Source of the DNA: Sedimentisphaera cyanobacteriorum
Lineage (GTDB): Bacteria; Planctomycetota; Phycisphaerae; Sedimentisphaerales; Sedimentisphaeraceae
NCBI RefSeq assembly: GCF_001997385.1
Contig: NZ_CP019633.1
Coordinates: forward strand, 570,001 to 602,000
Direction: 5' to 3'
Length of the DNA: 32,000 bases
Both the position numbers and the translations under genes were made by a program. The notes beneath the pieces were generated by a model. The model had not been told where the DNA came from, made no database searches, and saw only the letters and a list, made by a program, of their open reading frames with translations. Below are positions 7,747 to 32,000 of the stretch, piece by piece (position 1 is the first letter of the stretch; the number at the start of each line of letters is the position of its first letter).

Positions 7747-7833
7747 TTTATTGCTCCTGTCTGAATTTTAAGATTTAATTACTGCTCTGCTAATTAATTT
7801 AACAGTTTTGATTTTGCGAATATTTCATTCCGA

Positions 7834-8511: not shown

Positions 8512-8532
8512 ATCTAATCTCCGTTAAATAAG

Positions 8533-9633: not shown

Positions 9634-9669
9634 AATAACTCCTTTGCCTTTATCGAAATCGGGCGAAGA

Positions 9670-10437: not shown

Positions 10438-10471
10438 CTCCTTTAAAACATTAAACTAACAGTCTCTTCTC

Positions 10472-11233
10472 TTAATTCCTCGAATAACCCATTGCTTCGC
10501 TCAATTTCTCTGCACACTGAGTTACTTCTCCCGAAATACCTTCTATTCTTTGTTCAGGCAGACTGCTTGATGGGCCGGTTATCCCGATTGAAGCGCATAC
10601 TTCTCTGCTCCCGTTTTTTACGGGCGCAGCAATACAGCATACATTTTCATGATACTCTTGAGCATCTACGCTGCAGCCGTTCTCGAGAATTTTATTTACC
10701 TCTTTTTCCATCTCTTCGAGCGTTGTGATAGTGTTTTCGGTAAATTTTTCCGGATGGTGACTGCAGTAGTAGTTCTTGAGGCTGTCTTTGTGGATGTATG
10801 CAAGAAAAATTTTTCCTGTGGAGGAGCAGTACAAAGGAACAGTAGTCCCGGGTCTTGAGGCCACGCGTACAGGGTTGGGGCTGTCGTGAACTTCAAGGAT
10901 CAGCGACTGCCAGCCGGCAGGGACAGCAAGATGGCTTGTGCATCCTGTTTTGTTAGCAAGATCGCGTAGAAAAGGAACGCAAAGAGATCTTATCTCCATT
11001 GAGTGCAGTGAGTCCAGCCCGATTTTCACAAGCTGCGTGCCGGCGAAGAACAGCCCGTTTCTCTTTTCAGCCATTCCCTGAGCGCAGAGAGTTTGGAGTA
11101 TTCTGTAAACCGTGGTTCTTGCCGCTTCAGACATCTGTTCAATATCTGAAGCACTTAGCCCGTCAGCATTCTCGGCTAAAAGTTCTAAAATCCTGCAAGC
11201 CTTGATTATATTCGGAATCTGATATTTATTCAT
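10472..11233 (-). CDS. IclR-family transcriptional regulator (KdgR-like), first gene of the KDG operon
   Basis: 253 aa with an N-terminal winged HTH (ACRILELLAENADGLSASDIEQMSEAARTTVYRILQTL) and a C-terminal IclR effector domain. Only 34 nt separate it from kduD. Confidence 0.85.
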   Translation of the reverse strand: MNKYQIPNIIKACRILELLAENADGLSASDIEQMSEAARTTVYRILQTLCAQGMAEKRNGLFFAGTQLVKIGLDSLHSMEIRSLCVPFLRDLANKTGCTSHLAVPAGWQSLILEVHDSPNPVRVASRPGTTVPLYCSSTGKIFLAYIHKDSLKNYYCSHHPEKFTENTITTLEEMEKEVNKILENGCSVDAQEYHENVCCIAAPVKNGSREVCASIGITGPSSSLPEQRIEGISGEVTQCAEKLSEAMGYSRN

Positions 11234-12939: not shown

Positions 12940-13010
12940 CTGGGGTACAGGGATTCGAACCCCAACTAACTGAGCCAGAGTCAGTCGTGCTGCCGTTACA
13001 CTATACCCCA
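12940..13010 (-). tRNA. tRNA-Gln (anticodon CUG)
   Basis: Hand-folded 71-nt cloverleaf. Acceptor stem TGGGGTA/TACCCCA with discriminator G. D stem GTGT/GCAC. Anticodon stem ACTGA/TCAGT with loop CT-CTG-GC. T arm ends in a TTCGAAT loop. U1-A72 plus G73 is typical of bacterial tRNA-Gln. CCA is not encoded. Confidence 0.9.
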
Positions 13011-20074: not shown

Positions 20075-21166
20075 TTAAAAAACTATTGGAGCGAAGTCTT
20101 TTTCGTCGTAAACTTTTCCGAGGACTTTCTGCATTTGCGTTTGGTTTGATGCTTTAGCCACAGCGTCATTTTTATAAATCGCGCCTTTATAGAAAGTATC
20201 GAGTATGCTTTTGTCCAGAGAGTGCATTCCAATTTGTCGGGATGTTTCAATGATATTGGGGATTTCGTGAAGCCGGTTGTCTCGAATGCAGTTTTTTGCA
20301 GCAGAATTGCATACCAGCACCTCCGAACATGGAATCATACCCTCCATATCTTTTCGCTGGAAAAGGGTCTGCGAAACAACTGCTTTCAGTGTATTAGAAA
20401 GCAGGCTCCTTATATGGTTTTGCTGGCCGTCGGGGTAAATGTCTATAATCCTCTCGATTGTCTGTGCGGCATTGATTGTATGGAGGGTGCTCAAAACAAG
20501 GTGTCCGGTTTCAGCAGCGGTTATTGCAGCGGATGTGGTTTCGAGGTCTCTCATCTCGCCTAACATTATGATATCGGGGTCCTGCCGCATTGCATGCTTA
20601 AGCCCGGAAGCAAAATTTGTTACATCTCTTCCAAGCTCCCTTTGCTCAATATGGCTTAATTTATTTTCAAAGAGATACTCTATCGGGTCTTCAAGCGTGA
20701 TTATACGCTTGGCAGACTGCTCATTTATTTTATTTATCGTGGCTGCAAGAGTAGTGCTTTTGCCTGAGCCGGCAGGGCCTGTAACGAGCACAAGGCCTCT
20801 TGGAAGCCCCATTATCTCTTCAATTACCCCCGGAAGTTCGAGCTCATTAAGTTCTGGTATTGAATTGGGTATAACACGAAAGGACAAAGCGGGCTTGCCC
20901 CTCTGATAATGAACGTTAACACGAAACCGGTTTCGGCTCTCAAGCATAACAGCAAAATCTATATCCTTGTTTTCCTCGAGCTTATCACGGCCGCCTTCGT
21001 AAACAAAACGGTTTAGAAACGCCGTTAAATCTTCGGATGTTATTTCAGGAAAATCCAGGCTCATTATCACCGTGTTTTTTCTGACAACAGGCGCTAAACC
21101 GATATTAATATGAATATCGCTTGCCTTTTGCTCTACTGCTTTTTCAAGGGCTTCAGTTATCTTCAT
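20075..21166 (-). CDS. pilT: PilT-family type IV pilus retraction ATPase
   Basis: 363 aa. Walker A GPAGSGKST, Walker B/Asp box DIIMLGEMRD, His box GHLVLSTLHT, and a PilT-like AAKNCIRDNRLHEI motif (compare AIRNLIRE). The size is typical of PilT/PilU rather than PilB. Confidence 0.85.
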   Translation of the reverse strand: MKITEALEKAVEQKASDIHINIGLAPVVRKNTVIMSLDFPEITSEDLTAFLNRFVYEGGRDKLEENKDIDFAVMLESRNRFRVNVHYQRGKPALSFRVIPNSIPELNELELPGVIEEIMGLPRGLVLVTGPAGSGKSTTLAATINKINEQSAKRIITLEDPIEYLFENKLSHIEQRELGRDVTNFASGLKHAMRQDPDIIMLGEMRDLETTSAAITAAETGHLVLSTLHTINAAQTIERIIDIYPDGQQNHIRSLLSNTLKAVVSQTLFQRKDMEGMIPCSEVLVCNSAAKNCIRDNRLHEIPNIIETSRQIGMHSLDKSILDTFYKGAIYKNDAVAKASNQTQMQKVLGKVYDEKDFAPIVF

Positions 21167-22643
21167 TGCCTTTTTCTTTGCTCTTTCTCACAAGCTCTTT
21201 AAGATTTCTGCCATTAAAATTCGGTTGGGGGCATTCTGTTTTCTCTAAAATATTTTTTTCCTGCTTGCTCATCTTATGCTCGCCGGGGATAATCAGCGGG
21301 CGTATGAAAACCATCAGCTCTGATTCCTTAACCGTCTCATTTTCTGATCTGAAAGCAGGGGCGATCAGAGGGATATCGCCGAGTATTGGGGCTTTGGTGT
21401 AGTTTTTGGTGGTCTCAAACCGCTTAAGGCCCCCTAAAACAACAGTCTCCCCGCTCTTGAGAAGGGCGATTGTATCAAGACGCCTGGTATTTACCGTAGG
21501 TACGCCCTGTTGGTCGGGGCTTTGGTTTTCCACGATCCCAAACTCGGGTATTATCCGCAGCCTAAGCATATCATCTCTGGTGATGTGCGGGGTTACCTCA
21601 AGCTTTACGCCTACATCCTTGAACTCAGTGGAAGTCATAGACCCTCCCTGAGATGTCTCGCTTTCTTCTTTGTATGGAATCTCACGTACTATCTCAAAAT
21701 TAGCTGTTTCGTTGTCCAGCACGAGTATTTTCGGATTCGCAAGCAGTTTGGCGAGCCCTTCTTTATGAAGCATCGAAAGAATCATATCCACACTTATTGA
21801 ATCATTGAGAAATCCCAGTCTTATTGAACCTCCGGATTCCTTGTCAAAAGAACCCGCTGCAAACGGGTCTTCGCCGGTTTGGATGGGAGTCCCCTCAGGG
21901 GCTTCTCCGCTTAATATTTCATCGCTGTAATCGATCCCGTTTCCGGTTGTCTGATGAACCTGCTGCCCGATTGAATTTGAGGTTTCTGTTCCGGCATTCC
22001 ATTCTATTCCCAGTTCCACCGAGCTGTCGCCGGATACATCGTAAATCCTCACTTCAACAATCACCTGCTCTGTTACTCTGTCCAACTCCTCGATAAATTC
22101 ATCTATAGCTTTAATCCGGCTCTCTTTGTCGGTAACGGCTATATTGCTTGTCCCCGGGCTCACAGAAACCCTGCCAGTCTCTGAGATGTAGTCTTTCAGG
22201 GCGGAGGCAACATTAACTGCATCGGCATAAGTTATCCTGTAAACCTTGCTCACAGTTTTCTCGGGCGCATTGATTACTTCGCTCTCAGGAACAATCCGAA
22301 GCATAGTATTGGTTTTTACATAAGCATAGTTGTGCACAGCGAGGATATTCTCCAAAGCCTCGCCTACAGGGACATCGCTAAGCCTTGCATTTACCGTCCC
22401 TGTAACATCAGGGCTTTTCACCATATCAACATCTGCGTACTGCGAGATCATTCTGAGAACATCATCAATTTCCGTGCCTACAAAATCAACACTGATTTTC
22501 TTGCTCAGTTTTTTATCTATCGGTGCAGATTTCTGGGCATCTTCTTTCTCGGTTGATTTTATTTCTGCAAAACAGGGCATAGAGAAAATAATGAGCCCAA
22601 AAGCAATGCAGAGCATTCGTGAGGCAGATTTTGTGCGTTTCAT
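21153..22643 (-). CDS. Secretin (PilQ/GspD family outer-membrane channel)
   Basis: The C-terminal secretin domain reads LLANPKILVLDNETANF...VNTRRLDTIALLKSGETVVLGGL...APILGDIPLI...ELMVFIRPLII, preceded by N0/N1-like domains. I prefer the start at 22643 (MKRTKSASRMLCIAFGLIIFSMPCFA signal peptide) over the ORF-track start at 22700. The gene overlaps pilT by 14 nt. Confidence 0.85.
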   Translation of the reverse strand: MKRTKSASRMLCIAFGLIIFSMPCFAEIKSTEKEDAQKSAPIDKKLSKKISVDFVGTEIDDVLRMISQYADVDMVKSPDVTGTVNARLSDVPVGEALENILAVHNYAYVKTNTMLRIVPESEVINAPEKTVSKVYRITYADAVNVASALKDYISETGRVSVSPGTSNIAVTDKESRIKAIDEFIEELDRVTEQVIVEVRIYDVSGDSSVELGIEWNAGTETSNSIGQQVHQTTGNGIDYSDEILSGEAPEGTPIQTGEDPFAAGSFDKESGGSIRLGFLNDSISVDMILSMLHKEGLAKLLANPKILVLDNETANFEIVREIPYKEESETSQGGSMTSTEFKDVGVKLEVTPHITRDDMLRLRIIPEFGIVENQSPDQQGVPTVNTRRLDTIALLKSGETVVLGGLKRFETTKNYTKAPILGDIPLIAPAFRSENETVKESELMVFIRPLIIPGEHKMSKQEKNILEKTECPQPNFNGRNLKELVRKSKEKGNEDN

Positions 22644-22647
22644 AATA

Positions 22648-23325
22648 TTAATTCCTGCTGTCTTGTGTTGTGAGGATCTCACGGCTCCTGCCAACTTCAA
22701 TTTTGATTGGGTGGCCGTTGGTGTCTTCTAAGACCACGCTTTTCCTTGTAACTTTTGCAAGTCTGTAGCCTTCGAAAGTGCCGTCTTCATTTATCATTTT
22801 TCTGTTGATAAGAGCCATAGATTTACCTTCAGGATTCATCAAAACGCCCTTAACGAAAACCTTCTTCTTAACTACCTTGGACTCCTTTTTTTCAGCCTTT
22901 TCAGTCTCTTCGCGCTTGGGCTCCTCTTGTGGCATGAGAGAGTGTTTCTGTCTGAAAGCAAGTATCTTATTGAGATCGAGCATTGGATTCTTACATTTAT
23001 CGCTGCGGAATTCAGCAGGGCGGAATTCAGCAGGCTCCCATGCGCTCTTAAAGCTTATGTTTTCCAGAACTTTGATATCAGGCAGTCCCTTCTCCTTAGC
23101 GTCTTTAGCGGCCTCATTTTTAGTATAGAAGACGTTGTAATAAACCACTACCCCCAAAATGCATGCAAGAAAGGTTATAACTGCCGCTTCTTTTACTGTG
23201 CGCGGGTTGAGATGGCCTTCCTTGCCGATAAAATCCGAATCGAAAACGCTTTTCTTGTCGGCAATCTTTCCGCTTTCTGATAGGGCGGAAAAATCGGAGA
23301 CTGTTTTTTTCTTTTTGCCAAACAT
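22648..23325 (-). CDS. Bitopic membrane protein with a GspC/PilP-like C-terminal beta domain (putative secretin-interacting subunit)
   Basis: 225 aa with one TM helix (AAVITFLACILGVVVYYNVFY) and a Lys/Glu-rich linker. The C-terminal VKGVLMNPEGKSMALINRKMINEDGTFEGYRLAKVTRKSVVLEDTNGHPIKIEV resembles the HR domain pattern of GspC/PilP. GGAGGA Shine-Dalgarno. It ends 4 nt before the secretin start. Confidence 0.35.
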   Translation of the reverse strand: MFGKKKKTVSDFSALSESGKIADKKSVFDSDFIGKEGHLNPRTVKEAAVITFLACILGVVVYYNVFYTKNEAAKDAKEKGLPDIKVLENISFKSAWEPAEFRPAEFRSDKCKNPMLDLNKILAFRQKHSLMPQEEPKREETEKAEKKESKVVKKKVFVKGVLMNPEGKSMALINRKMINEDGTFEGYRLAKVTRKSVVLEDTNGHPIKIEVGRSREILTTQDSRN

Positions 23326-23396: not shown

Positions 23397-24687
23397 ATTT
23401 TAATTTGAAGCGCAACGCTTCGCTAATTTAATCAGCCCGCGTGGCGGGCTGGAGTTTATCGCTTTTAGCTGCCTGAATAGATAAAGAATAAGGGCGGCGG
23501 TTAAGCCGCCTCTATCCAGTATAGATTGTTGCGGTGCTCGGGTTGCTCTCCAGCATTGCCCTATCCCCTGCAACAAGATAATCTATTATAGCGATGGCGA
23601 TTGCTTTTAAAAAGTAAAAAAAGAGTACCCATTACGGTTGTTTTCGATAGAATGTTTTTTTGACGAAAAATACTCTATTTAAGGAACCGCAATGGGCTAT
23701 AGACATCTTAACATTAATGAGCGGGAAAGCATTCTAAAAATGCGATCTGAAGGAAAAAATTTACTGGAAATCGCCATATATCTCGGCAGGAGCAAGGGCA
23801 CTATCAGCCGTGAGTTGAATCGAAACATGTCCTCAACCCATGATTATAAGCCCCACCTGGCCCAGCGATATTACAGCAAACGCAGGGCCGCATCCAAGCA
23901 GCCATATCGGCTTGAACAGAATGGCCGTCTTCGTCGTCGAGTATGCAGTAAACTCGAGCAATATCACTCGCCTGAACAGATAGCAGGCCGTCTTGAAATC
24001 GACTATCCAGATAATGCCCAAATGCGTGTAAGCCCTTTGACCATATATAGTTGGGTTAAACGAGACAAGGTTGACGGCGGTGTTTTTTACAAGTTTTTGC
24101 GTCAAGGCCGTCGCAAACGACGAAAGAAGCACGGCAGTAATGACAAGCGTGGCCGGATACCGAACAAACGTTCGATCAGTGAGCGTCCGGAGGTTGTTGA
24201 CAAGCGTAATCGCTTCGGCGATTGGGAGGGTGACAGCGTCAGCGGTAAAGGACACGGTTCATTTATTGCGACACATGTCGAGCGTGCAAGCCGCTATCTG
24301 CTCTCTGGCAGGATGAAAGATAAGAGTGCCCAGAGCATGAATGAAACCACCCGAAGGTTGTTCAGGAAGATACCAAAGTCCAAGCGTCAAACGATGACAG
24401 TTGACAATGGTAAGGAGTTTGCCCAGTTTAAAGAGATGGAAAAAACAGTCGGCCTATGCTGCTACTTTGCTGATCCATACAGTTCTTATCAGCGTGGAAC
24501 TAATGAAAACACAAACGGCCTGCTTCGTCAGTTCTTCCCTAAGGGAACTGATTTTAAGAAAGTTAGTGATAAGGAACTTGACAAAGTTGTCGCCTTAATC
24601 AACAATCGACCAAGGAAATGTTTAAAATATCGGACACCAAATGAAGTGCTCTGGAGCGATGAAAAAAGTTGCGCTTCAGATTAAAAT
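23397..24687 (+). mobile_element. IS30-family insertion sequence (~1.29 kb)
   Basis: Terminal inverted repeats match 19/20: ATTTTAATTTGAAGCGCAAC at 23397-23416 vs the reverse complement of 24668-24687. The right IR overlaps the transposase stop. I found no convincing 2-3 bp direct repeat, so the ends are uncertain by a few bp. Confidence 0.8.
23692..24684 (+). CDS. IS30-family DDE transposase
   Basis: 330 aa with an N-terminal HTH (GRSKGTISRELNRN), GDWEGDSV, and YFADPYSSYQRGTNENTNGLLRQFFPKGTDF. These are all classic IS30-family blocks. Confidence 0.9.
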   Translation: MGYRHLNINERESILKMRSEGKNLLEIAIYLGRSKGTISRELNRNMSSTHDYKPHLAQRYYSKRRAASKQPYRLEQNGRLRRRVCSKLEQYHSPEQIAGRLEIDYPDNAQMRVSPLTIYSWVKRDKVDGGVFYKFLRQGRRKRRKKHGSNDKRGRIPNKRSISERPEVVDKRNRFGDWEGDSVSGKGHGSFIATHVERASRYLLSGRMKDKSAQSMNETTRRLFRKIPKSKRQTMTVDNGKEFAQFKEMEKTVGLCCYFADPYSSYQRGTNENTNGLLRQFFPKGTDFKKVSDKELDKVVALINNRPRKCLKYRTPNEVLWSDEKSCASD

Positions 24688-24898
24688 TTTGATTTCCCAG
24701 ATAAGAAACTTTTTTATTGCCTCATTTGTCTGCGGGATATAACGAACAAAATAAAGTTTTATGGGTATAAATTGTTAAATAATGCTATTGTTTCTGCCTT
24801 CAAAAATTAAAATTTTATTTTCAAGAAGCAAAATAAGTGTTGCAGATTTTTAATCTGGTATCATTTCGTAATTGAAACATTAAAACAGGGAAATTGCT

Positions 24899-25447
24899 TT
24901 GAAAGCGGAGATTCAAAAAAATACTGATATGCATACTGGCGAGAAGTTTACAGACCTTCTCACCGGGAACCAGAGACAAATTCACGCTTACATAATAAGC
25001 CTTGTAGGTAATTTTAATGATTCTGAAGATATCCTTCAGGAAACCACTAAAGAAATGTGGCAGAAGTTTGAAGATTACAAACTGGGTACAAATTTTCTTG
25101 CATGGGGCAAGAAGATTGCCTACTACAAGGTTCTGGAGTACAGAAATAGAAATAAAAGGAAGAAGTTCGTATTCGACGACTACATACTCCAGCAGATAAG
25201 CAGAGAATCTGCCTCTGAGCTCAAGGACACAAACGCATATACTATGTTTCTTGAGGACTGTATCAAAAAGCTCAGGGAGTCGGATTTGAGTCTCGTTAAA
25301 TCTTTGTATGTAGAGCAGAAAACTGTTAAACAGCTCTGCGCGAGCCTAAACCGTTCTCATCAGAGCATCTACAGAAGCCTTGGGAGAATTCTGAACCTGT
25401 TAAGACAGTGCATTATCAGGGCATCAATGAGGGCAGGAAATGAATAG
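24899..25447 (+). CDS. ECF (group 4) RNA polymerase sigma factor
   Basis: 182 aa with region 2 (SEDILQETTKEMWQKFEDY...FLAWGKKIAYYKVLEY) and a region 4 HTH (TVKQLCASLNRSHQSIYRSLGRI). The start is uncertain: TTG at 24899 with GGGA upstream, or ATG at 24929. Confidence 0.85.
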   Translation: MKAEIQKNTDMHTGEKFTDLLTGNQRQIHAYIISLVGNFNDSEDILQETTKEMWQKFEDYKLGTNFLAWGKKIAYYKVLEYRNRNKRKKFVFDDYILQQISRESASELKDTNAYTMFLEDCIKKLRESDLSLVKSLYVEQKTVKQLCASLNRSHQSIYRSLGRILNLLRQCIIRASMRAGNE

Positions 25448-27170
25448 ACAAACAATATTAGAATTTAGAAGCCTGTGCATTAAGCTTTTCGACGGGTCGC
25501 TTGAAGAACATGAGAGTCAGAGGCTTAATGAGCTTATGTATCACCCTGGGCTTAGAAAGGTCTATTTCGGGCTTGTTAAGGTTAACCTTTCTCTTAAATT
25601 TGCCGGCGAATGCTGCCGCGAGTCTTCAGACCTATTGAATGAAGAAACCTTTGTTGAGCAGGTATGGGAGAGCCTTGCTGCAGAGGAGAAAAATGCAGAG
25701 CCTGTGCAGAGGTTTGAATCTATAGAAGAATCTCCCAGAAGAGTAAACAAGAAGGTTTATCAGCAAAAACAGCCAAGACAAATCAGCAAATTCAATCTCT
25801 ATTCGGCGCTGACCGGGGTTGCAGCTCTGATTTTTATCTTCATTTTTGCCAGCATCTCACCGGACAGAACAGCTGTAAAAGCTGCAGCGGTAAGAGATGC
25901 CCTCAATGCCGAGTTTGCAGATGATTCTGAAAGCTATTCTCAAGGCCAGAGCATATGGGCAGGTGAAACTGTAAGGATTTCCGAAGGCTTTATTGAGTTT
26001 GAAACAGCCCGCAATGTCCTTATAACGGTTGAAGCACCTGCTGAGTTTGAATTCAATAAGCAGGACGATATGCAGCTTGAATATGGGCAGGTTTATGCAA
26101 ATGTAGGCGAGAATGGAATCGGCTTTACTGTGCATACCGACAATATGCGGCTAATCGACCTTGGAACTGAGTTCGGCGTTTACAGAGACAAAAAAGGCTG
26201 GACAGAGGTTCATATGATAAACGGCGAAGCGGCTCTTGTGGCAGGCGGGTCTTGGTTTAAGAAAACCAAACAGCAGCTGTTCAAAGGACAGGCAAGAGGT
26301 GTTTCAAGCAACGGCACCAGTGTAGAAGAGCTCGATTCTGAACCTGAAAAATTCGCACGATACATAAACTCAGACCACAAGTCTGTATGGAGAGGGCAGA
26401 AGGCATTAGATCTTGCCGATATTGTAGGCGGCGGCAACGGCCTTGGCAGCGGCGAGTACAAATCCGGTATCAATACCGCTTCCGGCGAATATACTACCGA
26501 TATCAACAGGCTTAATTCGCTTAAGTTTTCAAATGGTCAAGGGTATTTGAACGTAGATTCTCTTTCATTTGTTGACGGTGTGTTTATTCCCGACGGCGAG
26601 TTTGGAGCAGTCCAGGTTACCAGCGAAGGTCATACATTCAGCGGGGTATCAGACACAGAGGGCAAATACTGGATAGGGCTTCTTAACGGTGCGTACCATC
26701 CGAGGCTGCAGGATGTTCTCCCGCATACATTAACTCTGCAGGGGGTAAAGCAGAGCTATCCTGAGAATTCTGCTTTGTTTATACATCCCAATCAGGGCAT
26801 TACATTCGATCTTGATAAGATTGAGCAGGTTGTTCAGGGTAAAGAATTTAGCAGATTTACTGCTGAATTCGGCCTTTCAGACAGCGTGTTTGACAATGAT
26901 AATTTCGTTGTGCCTCTGAATAATTTTGAGGTCTTTGAGGAAGGCCAGCTCAATTGCGATTTGCAGGTTCTTGTTGATGGTCAGCTTCGGTTCGAGAAGA
27001 GCAATCAGTCTCCGTCCCAAAAGCCGAGCAGGGTAGATCTTACCTTAAAGCCTGAAGACCGTTTCCTAACACTTATCGTTACTATTCCAATAGAAGACAA
27101 TCTGCCTGAGGCAGGTTTTGTATGGGCATTTATGAAAGACCCCCAGCTGCATGTTTGGGGCAATGAATAG
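25440..27170 (+). CDS. FecR-type transmembrane anti-sigma factor with an extended C-terminal extracytoplasmic domain
   Basis: 576 aa. It overlaps the sigma gene by 8 nt. It has a short cytoplasmic N-domain, one TM helix (LYSALTGVAALIFIFIFASI), a FecR-like segment (about aa 160-270, ...FTVHTDNMRLIDLGTEFGV...) and then about 300 aa of unassigned sequence. Confidence 0.8.
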   Translation: MNRQTILEFRSLCIKLFDGSLEEHESQRLNELMYHPGLRKVYFGLVKVNLSLKFAGECCRESSDLLNEETFVEQVWESLAAEEKNAEPVQRFESIEESPRRVNKKVYQQKQPRQISKFNLYSALTGVAALIFIFIFASISPDRTAVKAAAVRDALNAEFADDSESYSQGQSIWAGETVRISEGFIEFETARNVLITVEAPAEFEFNKQDDMQLEYGQVYANVGENGIGFTVHTDNMRLIDLGTEFGVYRDKKGWTEVHMINGEAALVAGGSWFKKTKQQLFKGQARGVSSNGTSVEELDSEPEKFARYINSDHKSVWRGQKALDLADIVGGGNGLGSGEYKSGINTASGEYTTDINRLNSLKFSNGQGYLNVDSLSFVDGVFIPDGEFGAVQVTSEGHTFSGVSDTEGKYWIGLLNGAYHPRLQDVLPHTLTLQGVKQSYPENSALFIHPNQGITFDLDKIEQVVQGKEFSRFTAEFGLSDSVFDNDNFVVPLNNFEVFEEGQLNCDLQVLVDGQLRFEKSNQSPSQKPSRVDLTLKPEDRFLTLIVTIPIEDNLPEAGFVWAFMKDPQLHVWGNE

Positions 27171-27216
27171 CAGTATCTGCAGTTATGAAAAAGTTAATAT
27201 ACAACAATAAAAGAGG

Positions 27217-28035
27217 ATGAAAATGAATTCTAGAAAAAAGGCTTTCACACTTATAGAGCTTCTGGTTGTTATTTCAATCATAGCTCTTTTAATGGCAATA
27301 CTTATGCCTGCTTTGAGCAAGGCAAGGGAGCAGGGAAAGAGGATGCTCTGCGCTAATAATCTAAAACAGTGCGCTCTTGCCGCTCAGATTTATTCTCAGC
27401 AGAACAGGGGTGTATATCCGCTTCAGGCAACCACTGAATGGGCGTGGGATATTTCCTACTGGACAACCGACCTGATTATCGAAAGCGGTGCTGAGCCGGA
27501 TATATTCTACTGTCCGTCAAACACAAAGATGTCTGCCGACAAGGACAGATACTGGAGATTTGCTGAGATCTTCCCGGAAGCACCAAGCACAAGCCTTGAC
27601 AGGGAAGAGCCGGATACCCTTTTTCACAGAAGAAATCTTTACAGGGTCTCTTCTTATTTCTGGCTTTTCGACAGCTACGACGTTCTAAACGATAAGGATG
27701 CCGGCAGGCCAGACTTGGAGGGAAGACCTACAACCGACTGGCTCGTTAAATCTCAGGACGTGGAAAATCCGGCTGAGAGAAAAATGATTGCAGATGCTGT
27801 GTTCAAGCAGAATGAGCTTTATACCCAGATAAAAGGCGGCAATTGGGACGGCTGGAAGAAGACTGACAGGACAAACCACGTTGACGGCAGCGGCGATCTC
27901 AACGGCTCAAATGCGGCTTTCGCTGACGGTCATGTCGAATGGCTTGGCGAAGAAGAACTTGAAAACCCAGACGGTACCGACAGAGTTCGCCTTAGAGTTG
28001 GCGGTTCCGGCGGTACTGTAGAGCAGATTTGGTAA
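27217..28035 (+). CDS. Prepilin-type N-terminal cleavage/methylation domain protein (pseudopilin-like, PVC H-X9-DG-like family)
   Basis: Class III signal [27 protein letters not shown]. The C-terminal ...[12 protein letters not shown] resembles the H-X9-DG / DUF1559-type tail. The second ATG at 27223 has better spacing from AGAGGA and may be the true start. Confidence 0.85.
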
Positions 28036-28129
28036 TTTTAATTTAATTTAATCTAATCAGTAAACAGCAGACTATTATTTTCTGTGTGTTGAAATTCTAT
28101 TTTAATACTAATTTTTAAGGAGATTCATT

Positions 28130-30523
28130 ATGAAAAGAAGCTTGCTTCTAACAATGTTTCTTGCGGCGCAAATGTTTATTTTGCAGTCGCTTGCGGTAGG
28201 CGGGACAGTTGCCTACTGGCGATTTGAAGGCGGAACGGCGGATGGAGATCCCATCCTGCATGGTGAAGTACCCGACGGCCAATTCTATCCAGGCGTAATG
28301 GACAGTTCCGGAAACGGCAATGCCCTTACTGTGTGGAATGAAGGTGCCCACATCTACAGCACAGCAGTTGGCTACAGCGAAGTTCCCCAGACAGGGGCTG
28401 CTAATCAGTTTAGTGCGAAGAACAATAACGGTTCCCCTGGAATGTGGACTGAGACCGGCTCTCAAATCAGCAATATGAGTCCGGCTGAGTTTACAATTGA
28501 GGCAACTGTAAGGCTGGAGAACGGCGGTTATCGCTGTATAGTCGGTAGAGACAGTTACGGCACTTCGCCGCACAACCCGGACCTTGCAGCGCTTTATCTT
28601 CAGGCTACTCCCGATAATGGCCTTGCGATAAAATTCTGTGATGTTCAGGGTTTTTGGCATGATGCTATTTCAGAAACCGGGGTTATTGAAACCTACGACT
28701 GGGGAACAAATCCCTCTGGTGCCGGAACTCCGTTTTACAGCATCGCAGCAGTAAGCGACGGCGAATTTCTCTCACTTTATCTCTACAGCCACGACAATCC
28801 CGAAGAAGGCTACAGGCTTATTGCTCAGGAGAATATGCTCGAAGAAACAGAAAGCACAAACACCGCCCTTACAGCTGGCGCCGGAGACGGCGGAGACTGG
28901 GACGCAGGCAACTGGACAGTAACAAGAGGGCTTTACGCAGGAGGCCATGGAGACCGTGCTTGGGGTTTTGTTGATGAGGTAAGAATCAGCGATTCTGCCC
29001 TTAGAGTAACAGATCTGCTCCAAGGCCCAACCCCTTACAATGGTGATGTTGCTCAGCAGTCTGACCCAGCCAACGGCGATGTTGACGTTTCGTTCAACTG
29101 GGACGCACCGGGCGAGGATGCCTCCGGAGACGGCTCGAATGCCGTTGAGCCGGATCTTGTAGATCAGTACGTGTTTATAAGCTCAGGCACTGAAGGAAAT
29201 TCTGAGCTCTATTACGCAGGCGCTACCGGAATAGACCCGGGTACAGAAGACCCGGCATCTTCATTCGGTCCTGTTGATCTAAACTACGACAGCACTTATC
29301 AGTGGGCAGTTGTAGGCGTTATGGACGGATACGAGCAGAGCCTCACCCCGGGCGTAAGCACACTTGCAGATGCAGACCCGAACAACAACATTCACGGCCC
29401 GGTCTGGGAGTTTGAGTCTATGGCTTCTGTTCCGATTATTGAGGAAGACCCGGAATACGATGCTGCAGCAGAAGGCGATAATGCTTCGCTCAGTGTTGAA
29501 GCTACCAGTGTTACAACACCTTCATTCCAATGGTACAAGTCTGATGATCAGGCAAATGATACGCTTGATGATGATAATGCTGTAGGCGACCCAGACGTTA
29601 CTCTCGAAGTTACTCAGGACGGCGAAAGCTACACCTGCACAATGACAGTGCCCGCTGCAGCCTTCGCAGATGAAGGCTATTACTACTGCGAGGTTACCAA
29701 CGAAAGCGCTGCCTCAGCTGTGTCTCAGGCCGGTCAGATTGAAATCGAGAAACTCGTCAACTGGTATGAATTTGAGAACAACATTATGGATTCTCAGGGC
29801 ACTAACCACGGCGTTTCAATGAGGACAGATCCAAACGCTCCGTTCGATTATGCCTCAGGTATGGTAGGACAGGCTATCTCTCTCAATGCTGACGGCGTTG
29901 GCGATTCATTCGAAATCGATCAGTCTGTAAAGGCTAACTTCACAATAGAAATGTGGGTTAAGACAACAGGCGATTCTCCGGGAACCGACGGCTGGTACAA
30001 CGGCTTAGGTCTCGTTGACGGCGAGCTGCCAGGAAAAGTTGATGATATGGGTACAGCCCTGCTTGACGGCAAATTTGCTCTTGGAATTGGTGACTACGAC
30101 GCAGAGATGCAGATGACGCTTAAGTCTGAATCAGACATCAACGACGACAGCTGGCATTACTGCGTTGCAACACGCAACTATGAATCAGGCGATATGAAGG
30201 TTTATGTTGACGGCGTGCTCGAGGCCTCTTTAAGCGGAGCCACAGGCCTGAAAGATGAACCTCAAACACTTAGAATCGGCGCATTGCATACCGGTATGAA
30301 TTTCTTCCCGGGCCTTATCGATGAGCTCAAGCTATACAACTACGAGCTTTCTGAGGTAGAAATTGCTGATAACTACACCTCTCTGACTGGCGAGTCTGTT
30401 TGCCTTACCTCTCAAGCACCTGATAAAGACCTTGATGTAAATAATGACTGCCGGATTGATATGGCGGATTTTGCCGGTTTGGCAGCAGAATGGCTCACAA
30501 GCGGGCTTTTCCCTGTTGAGTAA
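28130..30523 (+). CDS. Secreted LamG-domain protein, paralogue A (LamG / FN3-like / Ig-like / LamG / dockerin-like tail)
   Basis: 797 aa. Signal peptide MKRSLLLTMFLAAQMFILQSLAVG. N-terminal LamG-like jelly roll (VAYWRFEGG...DEVRISDSAL). An Ig I-set-like segment (PSFQWYKSDD...EGYYYCEVTNES). A second LamG (NWYEFENN...IDELKLYNYELS). The C-terminal DVNNDCRIDMADFAGLAAEWL fits the dockerin/EF-hand loop consensus. AAGGAG Shine-Dalgarno. Confidence 0.8.
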   Translation: MKRSLLLTMFLAAQMFILQSLAVGGTVAYWRFEGGTADGDPILHGEVPDGQFYPGVMDSSGNGNALTVWNEGAHIYSTAVGYSEVPQTGAANQFSAKNNNGSPGMWTETGSQISNMSPAEFTIEATVRLENGGYRCIVGRDSYGTSPHNPDLAALYLQATPDNGLAIKFCDVQGFWHDAISETGVIETYDWGTNPSGAGTPFYSIAAVSDGEFLSLYLYSHDNPEEGYRLIAQENMLEETESTNTALTAGAGDGGDWDAGNWTVTRGLYAGGHGDRAWGFVDEVRISDSALRVTDLLQGPTPYNGDVAQQSDPANGDVDVSFNWDAPGEDASGDGSNAVEPDLVDQYVFISSGTEGNSELYYAGATGIDPGTEDPASSFGPVDLNYDSTYQWAVVGVMDGYEQSLTPGVSTLADADPNNNIHGPVWEFESMASVPIIEEDPEYDAAAEGDNASLSVEATSVTTPSFQWYKSDDQANDTLDDDNAVGDPDVTLEVTQDGESYTCTMTVPAAAFADEGYYYCEVTNESAASAVSQAGQIEIEKLVNWYEFENNIMDSQGTNHGVSMRTDPNAPFDYASGMVGQAISLNADGVGDSFEIDQSVKANFTIEMWVKTTGDSPGTDGWYNGLGLVDGELPGKVDDMGTALLDGKFALGIGDYDAEMQMTLKSESDINDDSWHYCVATRNYESGDMKVYVDGVLEASLSGATGLKDEPQTLRIGALHTGMNFFPGLIDELKLYNYELSEVEIADNYTSLTGESVCLTSQAPDKDLDVNNDCRIDMADFAGLAAEWLTSGLFPVE
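28973..29413 (+). repeat. High-identity tract shared by the two LamG paralogues (copy in A)
   Basis: It starts with a 92-bp perfect match (28973-29064 = 31454-31545) and is about 90% identical overall by eye. The flanking N-terminal LamG-coding DNA is only about 65-75% identical. Confidence 0.85.
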
Positions 30524-30610
30524 TGGTGTTTGATTTTGAATGATAATGTTAGAAAGCCTGCAGGCGAGATCTAATATCCGCCGCAGGCAATAACAATAAG
30601 GAGATTAACT

Positions 30611-32000
30611 ATGAGTAAAAAATTACTTTTAACAGCATTTTTTGCGGCGCAGATATTCCTTCTGCAGTCGCTGGCGGTAGGCGATACTGTAGCTTACTGG
30701 CGTTTTGAAGATGGAATTGCAGATGCCCAGGTGCTGCATGGCGCAGGCGAGGGCCAATTCGCTGCGGATATCCCAGATTCATCAGGAAACGGAAATGCCC
30801 TTTCCGTATGGAATGAAACATTCGCGGGATATGGCTTCAGAAGCGAAGTTGGCTATGATACCGTACCGTACACAGGGCAGGCAAACAACTTAAGTGTTAA
30901 AAATACAGGCGGCTTACCTGGCATGTTCACTGAAACCGGCTCGCAGATAAGCACAATTGAGCCTGCTCAGTTTACGATTGAGGCAACCTTCAAACTTGAA
31001 AACGGTGATTACCGCGGAATTATCGGCAGAGACAGCCAAGGCAGCGTAACAGGAGATGCTGCACTTTCAGCCCTGTATTTTCAGGCTCTACCGAACAACG
31101 GCGTTGCTGTAAAATTCTGCGATGTTCAGGGCTACTGGCACGATGCAATTTCTGAGGGCGGATTGATAGAAACTTATGATTTCGGCACTAACCCCTCCGG
31201 TGCAGGTGTTCCGTTCTACAGCATGGCAGCAGTGAGCGACGGCGAGCTGCTCTCGCTCTACCTCTACAATCACGATAAGCCCGAAGAAGGCTACAAGCTC
31301 GTTGCTCAGGAAGATATGCTCCAAGAAACAGACAGCACAAATACTGCTCTCACATCCGGTACTGGAGACGGCGGAGACTGGGACGCAGGCAACTGGAGTG
31401 TAGGAAGGGCCATGTTCGACGGCGGCCACGCAGACCGCGCTTGGGGCTACATTGATGAGGTAAGAATCAGCGATTCTGCCCTTAGAGTAACAGATCTGCT
31501 CCAAGGCCCAACCCCTTACAATGGTGATGTTGCTCAGCAGTCTGATCCAGCCAACGGCGATGTTGACGTTACATTCAGCTGGGACGCACCGGGCGAGGAT
31601 GCCTCTGGGGACGGCTCTAATGCCGTTGAGCCGGATCTTGTAGATCAGTACGTATTTATAAGCTCAGGCGATGAAGAAGATACCGAGCTGTATTACGCAG
31701 GCGCAACCGGCGCTGACCCGGGCACAGATAATCCGGCATCTTCATTCGGACCTGTTGACCTCAACTACGACAGTTCGTATCTGTGGGCAGTTGTAGGCGT
31801 TATGGACGGCTACGAGCAGAGCCTCACTCCGGGCGTAAGCACACTTGCAGATGCAGACCCGAACAACAACATTCACGGCCCTGTTTGGGAGTTTGATGCG
31901 ATGGCATCTGTTCCTGTAATAGACGAAGATCCTGTTTACGATATAGTTCCAGACGGCGGCGACGCTTCGTTAACCGTTGAGGTTACGAGCGTTACAATGC
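30611..32000 (+). CDS. Secreted LamG-domain protein, paralogue B (3' end beyond the window)
   Basis: The frame is open from ATG 30611 to the window edge (more than 463 codons), so it is absent from the ORF track. My translation MSKKLLLTAFFAAQIFLLQSLAVGDTVAYWRFEDG... is colinear with paralogue A. It has the same AAGGAGATT Shine-Dalgarno context. Confidence 0.8.
   Translation, partial: MSKKLLLTAFFAAQIFLLQSLAVGDTVAYWRFEDGIADAQVLHGAGEGQFAADIPDSSGNGNALSVWNETFAGYGFRSEVGYDTVPYTGQANNLSVKNTGGLPGMFTETGSQISTIEPAQFTIEATFKLENGDYRGIIGRDSQGSVTGDAALSALYFQALPNNGVAVKFCDVQGYWHDAISEGGLIETYDFGTNPSGAGVPFYSMAAVSDGELLSLYLYNHDKPEEGYKLVAQEDMLQETDSTNTALTSGTGDGGDWDAGNWSVGRAMFDGGHADRAWGYIDEVRISDSALRVTDLLQGPTPYNGDVAQQSDPANGDVDVTFSWDAPGEDASGDGSNAVEPDLVDQYVFISSGDEEDTELYYAGATGADPGTDNPASSFGPVDLNYDSSYLWAVVGVMDGYEQSLTPGVSTLADADPNNNIHGPVWEFDAMASVPVIDEDPVYDIVPDGGDASLTVEVTSVTM
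31454..31894 (+). repeat. High-identity tract shared by the two LamG paralogues (copy in B)
   Basis: Counterpart of 28973-29413 at a constant offset of 2481 bp. Confidence 0.85.

Follow-up and report, generated by a model that had tools for sequence, protein, structure and literature searches.

Sedimentisphaera cyanobacteriorum is an anaerobic planctomycete. The window analyzed here, a stretch of 32,000 nucleotides of its genome, ends in five co-directional genes on the forward (+) strand, the products of which are GenBank AQQ08660 to AQQ08664. These are an ECF sigma factor gene at 24899–25447 (182 aa, TTG start, an exact match to AQQ08660.1); a FecR-type anti-sigma gene at 25440–27170 (576 aa, 100% identical to AQQ08661.1); a gene at 27217–28035 (272 aa, AQQ08662.1), the product of which is pseudopilin-like (DUF1559/H-X9-DG) and bears a class III (prepilin) signal; and two genes for secreted noncatalytic proteins of the Ig–LamG type, one at 28130–30523 (797 aa, AQQ08663.1) and its tandem paralog at 30611–32000. 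The latter is open at the window end: the 463 codons present match the N terminus of AQQ08664.1 (796 aa in full) at 100% identity. GenBank places the pseudopilin start two codons later, at 27223, which gives 270 aa. The sigma and anti-sigma genes overlap by 8 nt and the later gaps measure 46, 94, and 87 nt, so that the genes and spacings of an earlier, sequence-only reading of this DNA match the recomputed coordinates. Because the spacers are short, the Shine–Dalgarno sequences strong, and intrinsic terminators were called in none of the cassette spacers, the genes look co-transcribed.

The cassette is preceded by a complete IS30 element (23397–24687), which separates it from secretin and PilT-like genes. 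The back-to-back link to these genes that had been proposed is thus broken, and the adjacency is not kept in the orthologous locus of S. salicampi, where the cassette adjoins a GspE/GspF/pseudopilin/PilM operon. Between the right end of IS30 and the TTG start lies the regulatory region of the sigma gene (24688–24898, + strand). Compared with S. salicampi, this block has a mean column identity of 79%, with AGTGTTGCAGATTTTTAATCTG being identical. Within it, GTGTTG-N16-TATCAT (24837–24864, + strand) is a candidate promoter-like element; a second candidate copy, GTGTTG-N17-TAATTT (28086–28114, + strand), precedes the first LamG gene by 16 nt and is conserved in S. salicampi. The pattern GTGTTG-N15-18-TAnnnT occurs at two sites in the 32-kb window, both in the cassette—a circular count, since the pattern was derived from those two sites. 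Over about 80 loci, neither the sequences upstream of the sigma gene nor those upstream of the target genes yielded a convincing shared ECF-type −35/−10 motif. The GTGTTG hexamer is weakly enriched (25/179 versus 9/281; p = 2e-5, uncorrected for the 4096 hexamers), and the sigma upstream regions are AT-rich and enriched for TATAT-like sequences, which gives them the look of housekeeping promoters. In addition, the 87-nt spacer between the two LamG genes has a stable predicted fold (−24.9 kcal/mol, z = −4.0), namely an intercistronic hairpin lacking a U-tract at 30556–30588 (+ strand). In the equivalent S. salicampi spacer, the fold recurs (z = −2.05) and the stem sequence differs.

The family assignments of the two regulators are borne out by profile searches. 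The sigma factor matches Sigma70_r2 (4.8e-8) and, over its full length (residues 16–172), the "Rhodopirellula/Verrucomicrobium family" TIGR02989 at 142.8 bits versus a cutoff of 124.55. The anti-sigma factor matches FecR (PF04773) at 27.4 bits versus a cutoff of 24; its NPCBM match in Pfam is subthreshold, and many of its homologs pass this model and carry the NCBI name NPCBM/NEW2. The AF2 model of the anti-sigma factor (pLDDT 87) features cytoplasmic helices (3–84), a transmembrane helix (117–139), the FecR β domain (147–300), a middle domain (301–440), and a C-terminal jelly-roll (approximately 441–576). Foldseek matches comprise CBM51 (2vmg/2vmh, TM 0.61–0.66), the anti-sigma factor BDI_1681 (4m0n, rmsd 2.9 over 137 columns), and the PupR CCSSD (6ovk). 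FecR and a CBM51-like jelly-roll at the C terminus can both be confidently modeled, and because of this predicted CBM51 fold, the C-domain is plausibly a glycan sensor, as had been suggested. Since a single transmembrane helix is followed by a periplasmic sensor, the ligand would be met in the periplasm and not at the surface, where the sequence-only reading had placed it. The sensor half is widespread, with at least 1411 protein clusters at 50% identity (at least 1009 at E ≤ 1e-10) and several anti-sigma paralogs per genome; the full-length proteins among the matches listed have approximately 530 to 620 aa, and the module spans roughly residues 300 to 570. Across cassettes, the periplasmic domains are evenly conserved (0.37–0.40 identity) and do not track the cassette type. 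Arabinan-type cassettes have domains that resemble the window's no more than those of other cassettes do; this speaks against the CBM51-like domain setting specificity in a simple, direct way.

The first secreted protein carries Pfam matches to Ig_3 (residues 435–524) and Laminin_G_3 (601–746). Its AF2 model (pLDDT 83.7) features a signal peptide, a jelly-roll (25–295), a β-sandwich (305–400), an Ig domain (425–540), a LamG domain (541–740), and two terminal helices, in agreement with the LamG/FN3-like/Ig/LamG layout proposed earlier. The dockerin-like loop of that proposal is seen as a half-match at the C terminus, which stays subthreshold for Dockerin_1 (E 0.012, 16.2 bits versus a cutoff of 22.9). 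In the structure search it is matched best by domain 4, the arabinan-binding domain, of AbnA, a GH43 arabinanase (5hon_A; TM 0.78, rmsd 3.2 over 220 columns, where the aligned jelly-roll is either of the two), and the modeled protein thus resembles an arabinan binder. It is 91% identical to its S. salicampi ortholog, and it shares 75% amino acid and 78% nucleotide identity with the second secreted protein; the two genes contain a tract of 81 to 98% identity (approximately 28970–29450 versus 31450–31930).

The prepilin-like character of the third gene product—a 12-letter class III signal motif and FADGHV had been pointed out, and both are present—is confirmed by matches to N_methyl, to H-X9-DG TIGR04294 (20.4 versus a cutoff of 19), and, at the borderline, to DUF1559 (23.4 versus 23.3). 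GenBank annotates it as "type II secretion system protein G." It scores 30.7 against the GspG equivalog, below the cutoff of 88.85, and falls under every cutoff of the T2SS pseudopilin equivalog models. In the structure comparison, the N-terminal helix alone matches solved pilins or GspG, and no solved homolog of the globular domain was found. The family is large (more than 7000 homolog matches), and the gene is kept at the same cassette position in S. salicampi. Four of the five nearest outside homologs examined (42–54% identity) lie within GH43/GH51/GH127 clusters, the regulators of which differ (ECF, AraC, or LacI); this subfamily therefore appears linked to the enzyme set and not to the regulator. 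The fifth belongs to a trio of sigma, anti-sigma, and pseudopilin genes that has no CAZyme in its vicinity. In S. salicampi, another pseudopilin gene abuts GH51 beside a paralogous sigma/anti-sigma pair.

The sequence-only reading had described the cassette as containing no enzyme, an impression that arises because the window ends too early. The GenBank accessions continue without a gap from AQQ08660 (sigma), 08661 (anti-sigma), 08662 (pseudopilin), and 08663/08664 (LamG) to AQQ08665, a GH43 protein annotated as "exo-alpha-(1->5)-L-arabinofuranosidase." This GH43 shares the module of the LamG proteins, at 52% identity over 520 aa, as well as their C-terminal tag. The S. salicampi locus keeps the five-gene order and continues with GH43 and GH2, and more distant orthologous loci feature sigma, anti-sigma, and a LamG–Ig–LamG protein, followed by GH43/GH2/GH127/GH51 and others. 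With these enzymes, the locus is a PUL-like degradation locus and not an enzyme-free device. Judged by gene content, the five genes would form the front end of a PUL-like, ECF-regulated cluster for degradation of a sugar polymer, probably arabinan—an assignment that draws on fold similarity and on GH families that are polyspecific. The parallel drawn earlier with the ECF-regulated PULs of Bacteroidetes is apt. A sigma/anti-sigma pair heads the cluster; the classical SusC/D uptake system is absent from the bacteria with such clusters.

A survey of related cassettes covered the top 80 matches out of more than 557 (several loci per MAG), with labels from crude ORF calling plus BLAST and regular expressions and with genes of the same loci as background. 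In this set, an ECF sigma gene lies directly upstream of the anti-sigma gene in 84 of 89 cassettes, and the family order recurs above background. Pseudopilins occupy position +1 in 19 of 82 cassettes versus 14/583 background genes (2.4%; OR 12, p = 1.5e-10), Ig–LamG proteins account for 58/239 downstream genes versus 15/583 (OR 12, p = 8e-21), and PEP-CTERM proteins are likewise enriched downstream (OR 8, p = 4e-11). Other genes in the downstream stretch include those for GH2, GH31, GH30, GH43, GH51, GH127, GH13, and sulfatases. The near-constant partner is the Ig–LamG protein and not the pseudopilin, which is found in 24 of 70 cassettes, about one third; the slot after the anti-sigma gene goes to a PEP-CTERM protein in the orthologous arabinan-type cassettes that other genera carry. 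A pseudopilin "in place of SusC/D," as had been proposed, is therefore overstated. The C-terminal chassis of the Ig–LamG proteins is mutually similar in 1690 of 1711 pairs, whereas the N-terminal approximately 300 aa are similar in just 74 of 1711 and fall into 28 clusters of CBM-like modules (LamG, CBM96, F5/8C, X25, and CBM48). The small PEP-CTERM proteins often bear this hypervariable module: the ectodomain is shared in 17 of 27 same-cassette pairs versus 61 of 1920 different-cassette pairs.

We consider it likely that the five genes are the start of a PUL-like operon switched by the sigma/anti-sigma pair and directed at a glycan that probably contains arabinose, such as arabinan or arabinoxylan side chains. 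From what is known of these families, the sigma factor would be held at the cytoplasmic membrane by the co-translated anti-sigma factor. The periplasmic part of the latter—FecR, conserved middle domain, and CBM51-like jelly-roll—would sense the glycan, or oligosaccharides derived from it, within the periplasm, either directly or via the adjacent Ig–LamG protein. Released sigma factor would then raise transcription of the pseudopilin, the two glycan-binding proteins, and GH43 (plus GH2 in the sister species). A "specificity" jelly-roll, N-terminal or internal, would be common to the binding proteins and enzymes, as would a short dockerin-like tag at the C terminus; the tag suggests that they are anchored or sorted by a common route. 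The pseudopilin may serve the type II secretion or type IV filament machinery as an accessory linked to the substrate, aiding either export of the cluster cargo or capture of the glycan.

The indirect route of detection, in which the N-terminal Ig–LamG module binds the glycan and the chassis contacts the anti-sigma periplasmic part in a FecA- or SusC-like transducer role, is possible, if less likely than not. It would suit the presence of an Ig–LamG gene at one of the three positions after the anti-sigma gene in most cassettes (60 among the positions scored, namely 82 at +1, 70 at +2, and 48 at +3)—a placement likened to that of fecA in fecIRA—as well as the conserved chassis with its hypervariable N terminus and the evenly conserved anti-sigma domains. 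Divergence of these domains and of the chassis is correlated (Mantel r = 0.49; the known sigma/ASD contact gives 0.68, and other pairs give 0.41 and 0.39), but this correlation is confounded by common duplication history. Moreover, the predicted CBM51 fold of the anti-sigma factor itself suggests direct sugar binding, and the Ig–LamG proteins may not remain in the periplasm because of their apparent export or anchoring tag. For the pseudopilin, a role solely as cargo-specific T2SS pseudopilus adaptor that allows enzymes and binding proteins to be exported across the outer membrane in folded form, with no part in capture or uptake, is possible, if tentative. The class III signal and GspG/PilA-like N-terminal helix, the GenBank label, the secretin and PilT-like ATPase within the window, the Gsp operon beside the S. 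salicampi cassette, the Sec signals on all cluster cargo, and the link to the enzyme set are consistent with it; the equivalog scores, the globular domain without solved homolog, and the two thirds of cassettes that have similar cargo yet no pseudopilin argue against it.

The circuit originally envisaged—enzyme-free sensing and capture, with the pseudopilin in the role of SusC/D and the sigma factor driving a filament subunit and lectin-like exoproteins—is improbable. All five families are present and co-directional, pseudopilins are enriched directly after related anti-sigma genes, and the trio of locus L090 has no CAZyme nearby; however, glycoside hydrolases directly follow in both Sedimentisphaera species, and the pseudopilin is missing from most cassettes or replaced in its slot. 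That functionally unrelated neighbors were brought together by chance is very improbable. The ECF, FecR, DUF1559, and LamG families are indeed hugely expanded in PVC genomes, as the pseudopilin matches and anti-sigma paralogs illustrate, but the order is kept in two species, the enrichment over same-loci background reaches p values of 1e-10 to 1e-21, pseudopilin homologs track arabinofuranosidase clusters, and ectodomains are shared within rather than between cassettes.

The sequence-only reading held that the combination has no experimentally defined role, and our literature search likewise found no experimental work on the sigma/anti-sigma/pseudopilin/LamG layout. Planctomycetal CAZyme clusters are functionally uncharacterized according to a 2024 paper (PMC11131199). 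The probable arabinan cluster of S. cyanobacteriorum belongs to a large, modular, and experimentally untouched family of similar clusters.

The cassette on the plus strand of the window comprises five genes. It starts with the ECF sigma gene (24899–25447, 182 aa, AQQ08660.1), which overlaps by 8 nt with the FecR-type anti-sigma gene (25440–27170, 576 aa, AQQ08661.1). The pseudopilin-like gene (27217–28035, 272 aa, AQQ08662.1), the first Ig-LamG gene (28130–30523, 797 aa, AQQ08663.1), and the second Ig-LamG gene (30611 onwards, still open after 463 codons at the edge of the window, AQQ08664.1) follow, separated by spacers of 46, 94, and 87 nt as judged by the ORF coordinates. All five products are exact matches to the GenBank entries AQQ08660.1–AQQ08664.1, and the anti-sigma factor and the pseudopilin are 100% identical to proteins of Sedimentisphaera cyanobacteriorum (Phycisphaerae, Planctomycetota). 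The ORF check and the GenBank matches hence confirm the five ORFs called in the sequence-only reading, and profile searches agree with its family assignments for the sigma factor, the anti-sigma factor, the third gene, and the 797-aa protein. An Rfam search of the cassette gave no match. The spacer between the two LamG genes (−24.9 kcal/mol, z −4.0) features a strong hairpin without a U-tract at 30556–30588; the same hairpin occurs in S. salicampi with a different stem sequence and may serve in mRNA processing or stability.

The sigma factor is assigned by its profile scores to the ECF (group 4) sigma factors and, within these, to the TIGR02989 subfamily. It matches TIGR02989 over residues 16–172 with 142.8 bits (cutoff 124.55) and Sigma70_r2 with 33.1 bits (cutoff 24), and it contains the sigma-2 and sigma-4 regions only. 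As expected for a co-encoded cognate anti-sigma factor, the two genes overlap, and 84 of 89 related cassettes have an ECF sigma gene immediately before the anti-sigma gene. The anti-sigma factor matches FecR (PF04773) with 27.4 bits (cutoff 24). Its AF2 model (pLDDT 87) features cytoplasmic helices (residues 3–84), a single transmembrane helix (117–139), a FecR β domain (147–300), a middle domain, and a terminal jelly-roll (approximately 441–576)—and thus the cytoplasmic anti-sigma domain, lone transmembrane helix, and periplasmic FecR domain that characterize the FecR type. In Foldseek searches, the FecR part matches the Parabacteroides anti-sigma factor BDI_1681 (4m0n) and the PupR signalling domain (6ovk), and the C-terminal domain matches the CBM51 structures 2vmg/2vmh (target TM 0.61–0.66, probability 1.0) and, at target TM 0.54–0.59, 2vng/2vnr. 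The NPCBM profile PF08305 stays below its gathering score in the window protein (18–19.8 bits versus 23.9); many homologues carry a precomputed PF08305 match, and many are named "NPCBM/NEW2 domain-containing" by NCBI. The C-terminal domain is therefore predicted to have the CBM51 β-jelly-roll fold, with a putative role in sugar binding.

A search with the sensor half of the anti-sigma factor (residues 301–576) detects 1411 clusters at 50% identity, 1009 of them at E ≤ 1e-10. Among the best 150 matches listed, the full-length proteins have approximately 530–620 aa with the module at about residues 300–570, and the remainder are shorter, fragment-looking proteins. FecR-CBM51 anti-sigma factors are a large family of fixed architecture. 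No TonB-dependent transducer is found anywhere in the window, cassette included, or among the annotated related loci examined, and the TonB and Plug families are absent from the top Pfam families of 75 downstream cassette proteins; every locus examined therefore lacks the partner that defines FecIRA-type signalling. A second type of FecR anti-sigma factor, with a C-terminal Laminin_G_3 domain in place of NPCBM, is encoded in the related locus L002 (3298–5477, minus strand), where it is paired with an ECF sigma factor and adjoins a sulfatase and a radical-SAM maturase. Hence, these genomes hold more than one design of CBM-bearing FecR anti-sigma factor.

The third gene product is assigned, again by profile, to the DUF1559 / H-X9-DG family. 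It features a class III signal with Phe+1 and Glu+5 and a hydrophobic α1 helix, and it matches N_methyl (PF07963, 32.8 bits versus 21.2) and TIGR02532 (27.4 versus 16.3). The match to DUF1559 (PF07596) is borderline and confined to the N-terminal part (23.4 versus 23.3 bits); that to H-X9-DG (TIGR04294) reaches 20.4 versus 19, and the motif NH..G.N..F.DGH..W is conserved in the alignment. FTLIELLVV is invariant across 42 homologues, and the family profile matches the N-termini of PilA and GspG. An assignment as one of the named T2SS pseudopilins was rejected, with GspG at 30.7 versus 88.85, GspH at 19.6 versus 80, and GspI at 20.3 versus 44.35. A profile search of the PDB matched the N-terminal helix only and gave no solved homologue of the globular domain. 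Compared with the DUF1559/H-X9-DG proteins of PVC bacteria and with GspG–K, the protein shares the class III signal, the α1 helix, and the C-terminal H-X9-DG motif. It differs from them in being about twice the size of GspG, in scoring below all equivalog cutoffs, and in being encoded within a CAZyme cluster instead of a secretion operon.

Four of five nearest homologues examined outside the genus lie in clusters of the α-L-arabinofuranosidase type. Their surroundings comprise an AraC regulator, a PEP-CTERM protein, a LamG-Ig-LamG protein, GH43, and GH115 (L086, pseudopilin identity 54%); GH51, GH43, and GH97 (L087, 42%); an ECF/FecR pair, GH51, and GH127 (L088, 47%); and LacI, GH127, and GH51 (L089, 44%). 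The fifth, L090 (ctg13088c 955722–974555, 44%), is a bare trio of sigma factor, FecR-NPCBM anti-sigma factor, and pseudopilin with no CAZyme nearby, followed downstream by a cation-efflux protein and two-component-system genes. The pseudopilin subfamily thus follows the substrate and enzyme set, and not the regulator, which argues for a real, substrate-linked role; this could be export, capture, or another function. In the paralogous S. salicampi locus L091 (CP021023.1 252773–274482), two 174-aa ECF sigma genes flank the anti-sigma gene, and an adjoining pair of pseudopilin and GH51 genes lies upstream of the sigma/anti-sigma genes, not downstream. We know of no role for any of the thousands of DUF1559 members, and the cassette could give this family its first functional handle.

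The 797-aa protein matches Ig_3 and Laminin_G_3 in profile searches. Its AF2 model (pLDDT 83.7) features a signal peptide, a jelly-roll (residues 25–295), an FN3-like sandwich (305–400), an Ig domain (425–540), a LamG domain (541–740), and two C-terminal helices. Structurally, the model of the LamG protein is closest to domain 4 of Geobacillus stearothermophilus AbnA (5hon; TM 0.78, rmsd 3.2 over 220 columns, 21% identity), a match that may stem from either of its two jelly-rolls. In AbnA, this is the arabinan-binding accessory domain of a GH43 arabinanase; the window module, in contrast, sits on two non-catalytic proteins, and arabinan binding by it is putative. Overall, the tandem LamG genes are 78% identical, and a tract of approximately 480 nt (28970–29450 versus 31450–31930) is 81–98% identical, includes a perfect run of 94 nt, and covers the FN3-like domain together with the final part of the jelly-roll, which suggests gene conversion between the paralogues.

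Comparison of 59 Ig-LamG proteins separates a conserved chassis from a variable module. The C-terminal part is mutually similar in 1690 of 1711 pairs, and the N-terminal ~300 aa in just 74 of 1711, falling into 28 clusters; these N-terminal regions are CBM-like (LamG, CBM96, F5/8C, X25, CBM48). In 17 of 27 pairs of PEP-CTERM and Ig-LamG proteins encoded in one cassette, the PEP-CTERM ectodomain and the Ig-LamG N-terminal module are homologous (31–77% identity), compared with 61 of 1920 pairs from different cassettes. This sharing occurs at the related loci L005, L007, L010, L016, L018, L028, L040, L045, L047, L049, L059, L064, L070, L077, and L084. With the variable N-terminus on a conserved chassis, it indicates that each cassette seems to carry one specificity module that is presented on several chassis. 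A C-terminal tag, D-x-N-x-D-C-x-V-D-x-x-D-F-A-x-x-A-x-x-W, ends 39 of 62 Ig-LamG proteins and 20 of 91 other cassette proteins, compared with 23 of 746 background proteins, and is found on none of 25 pseudopilins and none of 35 PEP-CTERM proteins. In the 797-aa protein the tag is encoded at 30440–30523, and many more copies occur in L001–L085 on enzymes and non-catalytic proteins; the tag may serve in sorting or anchoring. Dockerin_1 (PF00404) gives a half-match only to the 797-aa protein (16.2 bits versus 22.9, profile positions 28–52 of 57). A cellulosomal type I dockerin, which requires a duplicated Ca-binding loop-helix, was rejected for this single, sub-threshold segment.

The sequence-only reading had described the cassette as free of enzymes, which reflects the truncation of the locus by the window end. 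Judged by consecutive GenBank accession numbers, AQQ08664 is directly followed by AQQ08665, an 874-aa GH43 protein annotated as extracellular exo-α-(1→5)-L-arabinofuranosidase. AQQ08665 carries the jelly-roll and FN3-like block of the LamG proteins (52% identity over 520 aa) and ends with the same C-terminal tag. S. salicampi features the identical five-gene order, with 87–91% amino acid identity to the window for the anti-sigma factor and the first LamG protein, and then GH43 and GH2. An enzyme-free system for envelope sensing and capture is ruled out by these neighbours. In more distant Sedimentisphaerales, the order is sigma factor, anti-sigma factor, LamG-Ig-LamG protein, and then GH43/GH2/GH127/GH51 and others, with the slot after the anti-sigma factor empty or occupied by a PEP-CTERM protein and no pseudopilin. 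The GH43 neighbour, the synteny in S. salicampi and the distant Sedimentisphaerales, and the match to AbnA domain 4 together suggest a PUL-like locus whose probable substrate is an arabinose-containing glycan.

Upstream of the cassette, the secretin and PilT-like genes (20075–23325, minus strand) are separated from the sigma promoter region by a complete IS30-family element (23397–24687) that encodes a 330-aa transposase (312 bits to NF033563) and terminates in 20-nt inverted repeats with 95% complementarity. The secretin-PilT operon had been placed back-to-back with the cassette; it is indeed nearby, but the IS30 element lies between them. In S. salicampi, this site is free of IS elements, and the divergent neighbour is a GspE/GspF/pseudopilin/DUF7305/PilM operon, so the adjacency of secretin-PilT and cassette is not conserved. 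A secretion or filament gene set adjoins the cassette in both Sedimentisphaera species, and the IS30 element may mark a rearrangement or the deletion of part of a secretion operon. Farther upstream, the window contains tandem genes for 620-aa sodium:solute symporters (SSF) with the same Pfam match pattern (14416–16278 and 16449–18311), a single tRNA gene (12940–13010, minus strand) as its sole Rfam match, and a hexuronate/KDG block (6916–11233, minus strand) of KduI, KDPG aldolase, PfkB kinase, short-chain dehydrogenase, and IclR regulator. This block adjoins a DDE transposase gene (5083–6705), and pyruvate:ferredoxin oxidoreductase is encoded at 402–3965.

When GTDB species genomes were scanned with an alignment of the anti-sigma factor, more than 557 relatives emerged, of which the best 79 loci were analysed together with loci fetched earlier. 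The resulting census is based on our own crude ORF calling with BLAST and regex labels, and covers a best-scoring subset to which individual MAGs contribute several loci. Two or more co-directional genes lie downstream in 70 cassettes; of these, 40 contain an Ig+LamG protein of approximately 700 aa, 34 a small PEP-CTERM protein (PF07589 matched by all 33 scanned), and 24 a prepilin/DUF1559 gene; six contain none of these three partner classes. Among the three, the Ig-LamG protein occurs most often, and the pseudopilin is an optional member of about one third of the cassettes. Relative to other genes of the same loci, the pseudopilin is enriched at position +1 (19/82 versus 14/583, OR 12, p = 1.5e-10), as are PEP-CTERM proteins (OR 8, p = 4e-11) and Ig-LamG proteins (OR 12, p = 8e-21) downstream; the gene order hence recurs beyond what copy number predicts. 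Other downstream genes include those for diverse CAZyme families (GH2, GH31, GH30, GH43, GH51, GH127, GH13, sulfatases), for FAD oxidoreductases, and for BNR, PKD, and PA14 proteins.

Promoter elements were searched for by dyad and k-mer enrichment in approximately 80 sigma-upstream regions and in 179 intra-cassette versus 281 control spacers. No shared −35/−10 dyad was found in the ~80 loci; the k-mer search yielded Shine-Dalgarno signals and a weak enrichment of GTGTTG/TGTGTG in cassette spacers, with TGTGTG in 22 of 179 cassette versus 9 of 281 control spacers. GT-rich runs, for example TGTGAAGTGTGTG, recur 5′ of PEP-CTERM genes (among others in L014, L016, L032, L040, L047, L048, L049, L077). 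A candidate element, GTGTTG-N16/17-TAnnnT, occurs in the window only at 24837 and 28086, the two sites from which the pattern was derived, and both sites are kept in S. salicampi; it is a lead, not a result. Upstream of the sigma genes, the sequence is AT-rich, and TATAT-like stretches are overrepresented. Spacers after the anti-sigma gene are often 20–70 nt long, the target genes have strong Shine-Dalgarno sequences, and no intrinsic terminators were called within the window cassette. All this is consistent with a common transcript that starts upstream of the sigma gene, with internal promoters possible.

How the signal is read by the anti-sigma factor was approached through divergence. The periplasmic domains are evenly conserved (0.37–0.40 identity), and the CBM51-like domain does not track with cassette type: periplasmic domains from arabinan-type cassettes are no closer to that of the window than are those from other cassettes. 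This leaves room for indirect sensing, in which the Ig-LamG protein acts as transducer to the anti-sigma factor. Divergence of the periplasmic part correlates with that of the Ig-LamG chassis (Mantel r = 0.49), compared with r = 0.68 for the known contact between sigma factor and anti-sigma N-terminus. Such a transducer would account for the correlation, but a shared duplication history could explain it equally well.

Bacteroides ECF/anti-sigma PULs signal across the envelope via SusC-like transducers (PMC2709373). The cassette resembles them in that an ECF sigma factor and a single-pass FecR anti-sigma factor head a co-directional glycan-degradation cluster, in the occurrence of many paralogous cassettes per genome with a CAZyme set each, and in the superposition of the window FecR domain on BDI_1681. 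It differs in the accessory genes, which encode Ig-LamG, PEP-CTERM, and pseudopilin proteins, and in the extra conserved middle domain and CBM51-like domain of the window anti-sigma factor. No SusC/SusD pair is found in the window, the orthologous loci, or the annotated related loci. The σI/RsgI systems of Clostridium thermocellum, biomass-sensing anti-sigma factors as cited in PMC11557425, share a membrane anti-sigma factor with an outward-facing C-terminal carbohydrate-binding module (here CBM51-like by fold), secreted glycan-active targets with a dockerin-type tail, and several paralogous sensor pairs per genome. Unlike these, the cassette features a group 4 ECF sigma factor and a FecR-type anti-sigma factor in place of SigI and RsgI, and a dockerin-like tag of a single sub-threshold segment; sensing would be periplasmic because Sedimentisphaera is diderm. 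By analogy, the cassette probably functions in the manner of ECF-regulated Bacteroides PULs and of the clostridial CBM-bearing RsgI/SigI sensors. It is not of the Bacteroides kind because it lacks SusC/D and a TonB-dependent transducer, and not of the clostridial kind because it lacks SigI and RsgI.

With FecIRA and PupIR, the cassette shares the overlapping sigma/anti-sigma genes, the cytoplasmic helical domain, single transmembrane helix, and periplasmic FecR domain with a PupR fold match, and sigma-gene upstream regions that look housekeeping-type rather than autoregulated, fecIR being housekeeping-driven. In contrast to these systems, it has no outer-membrane TonB-dependent transducer and no iron context, the window anti-sigma factor carries approximately 275 extra periplasmic residues ending in the CBM51-like fold, and the fecA position is taken by an Ig-LamG protein or pseudopilin. 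In Akkermansia muciniphila MUL2, PilM and a type IV-like pilin are required for mucin uptake, according to the account in PMC13174399 that cites Davey et al. 2023. Akkermansia belongs to the PVC group, has no classical SusC/D, and links proteins of the pilus type to the acquisition of glycans; MUL2, with PilM and pilin, constitutes an assembly locus and not a sigma-controlled CAZyme cassette, and the role of the pseudopilin in the cassette is only putative. MUL2 may thus serve as a loose PVC precedent for pilus-linked glycan uptake. A literature search gave no description of the cassette layout, and PMC6388578 and PMC7356697 contain no discussion of ECF/anti-sigma genes beside sulfatases in Kiritimatiellales.

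Planctomycetes and other PVC bacteria play a major part in the degradation of complex polysaccharides and can accumulate polymers in the periplasm. To our knowledge, they lack SusC/D, the sensing and uptake system of Bacteroidota. It is conceivable, if rather improbable, that each cassette of this family forms an autonomous unit for glycan acquisition that needs no SusC/D and has the type II secretion / type IV filament machinery of the cell as its base. A glycan-binding module specific to the cassette would be displayed in several forms, namely on the PEP-CTERM protein as surface anchor, the Ig-LamG chassis, and the enzymes, and the chassis would relay occupancy to the FecR-CBM51 anti-sigma factor as a protein transducer replacing the TonB-dependent one. 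The cassette-specific pseudopilin would equip a retractable filament—a PilT-like ATPase is present—which would capture polymer or pull it through the secretin into an enlarged periplasm. If true, this would explain the "selfish" polysaccharide uptake of planctomycetes.

Planctomycetal CAZyme clusters are functionally uncharacterised according to a 2024 comparative study (PMC11131199). The functional statements on the cassette are those that we infer from sequence, fold, and context. Since the strain, L21-RPul-D3, is cultured, the predictions can be tested directly: induction by arabinan-type glycans, binding by the two domains, contact between anti-sigma factor and Ig-LamG protein, and processing and localisation of the pseudopilin. 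The locus represents a recurrent, modular blueprint for the organisation of glycan regulons in Sedimentisphaerales, consisting of an ECF sigma factor, a FecR-CBM51 anti-sigma factor, a conserved Ig-LamG chassis whose binding module is exchangeable, a PEP-CTERM anchor that bears this module as well, and an optional substrate-linked pseudopilin. For glycan sensing and handling in Planctomycetota, the cassette family thus offers a large, modular, and testable blueprint.
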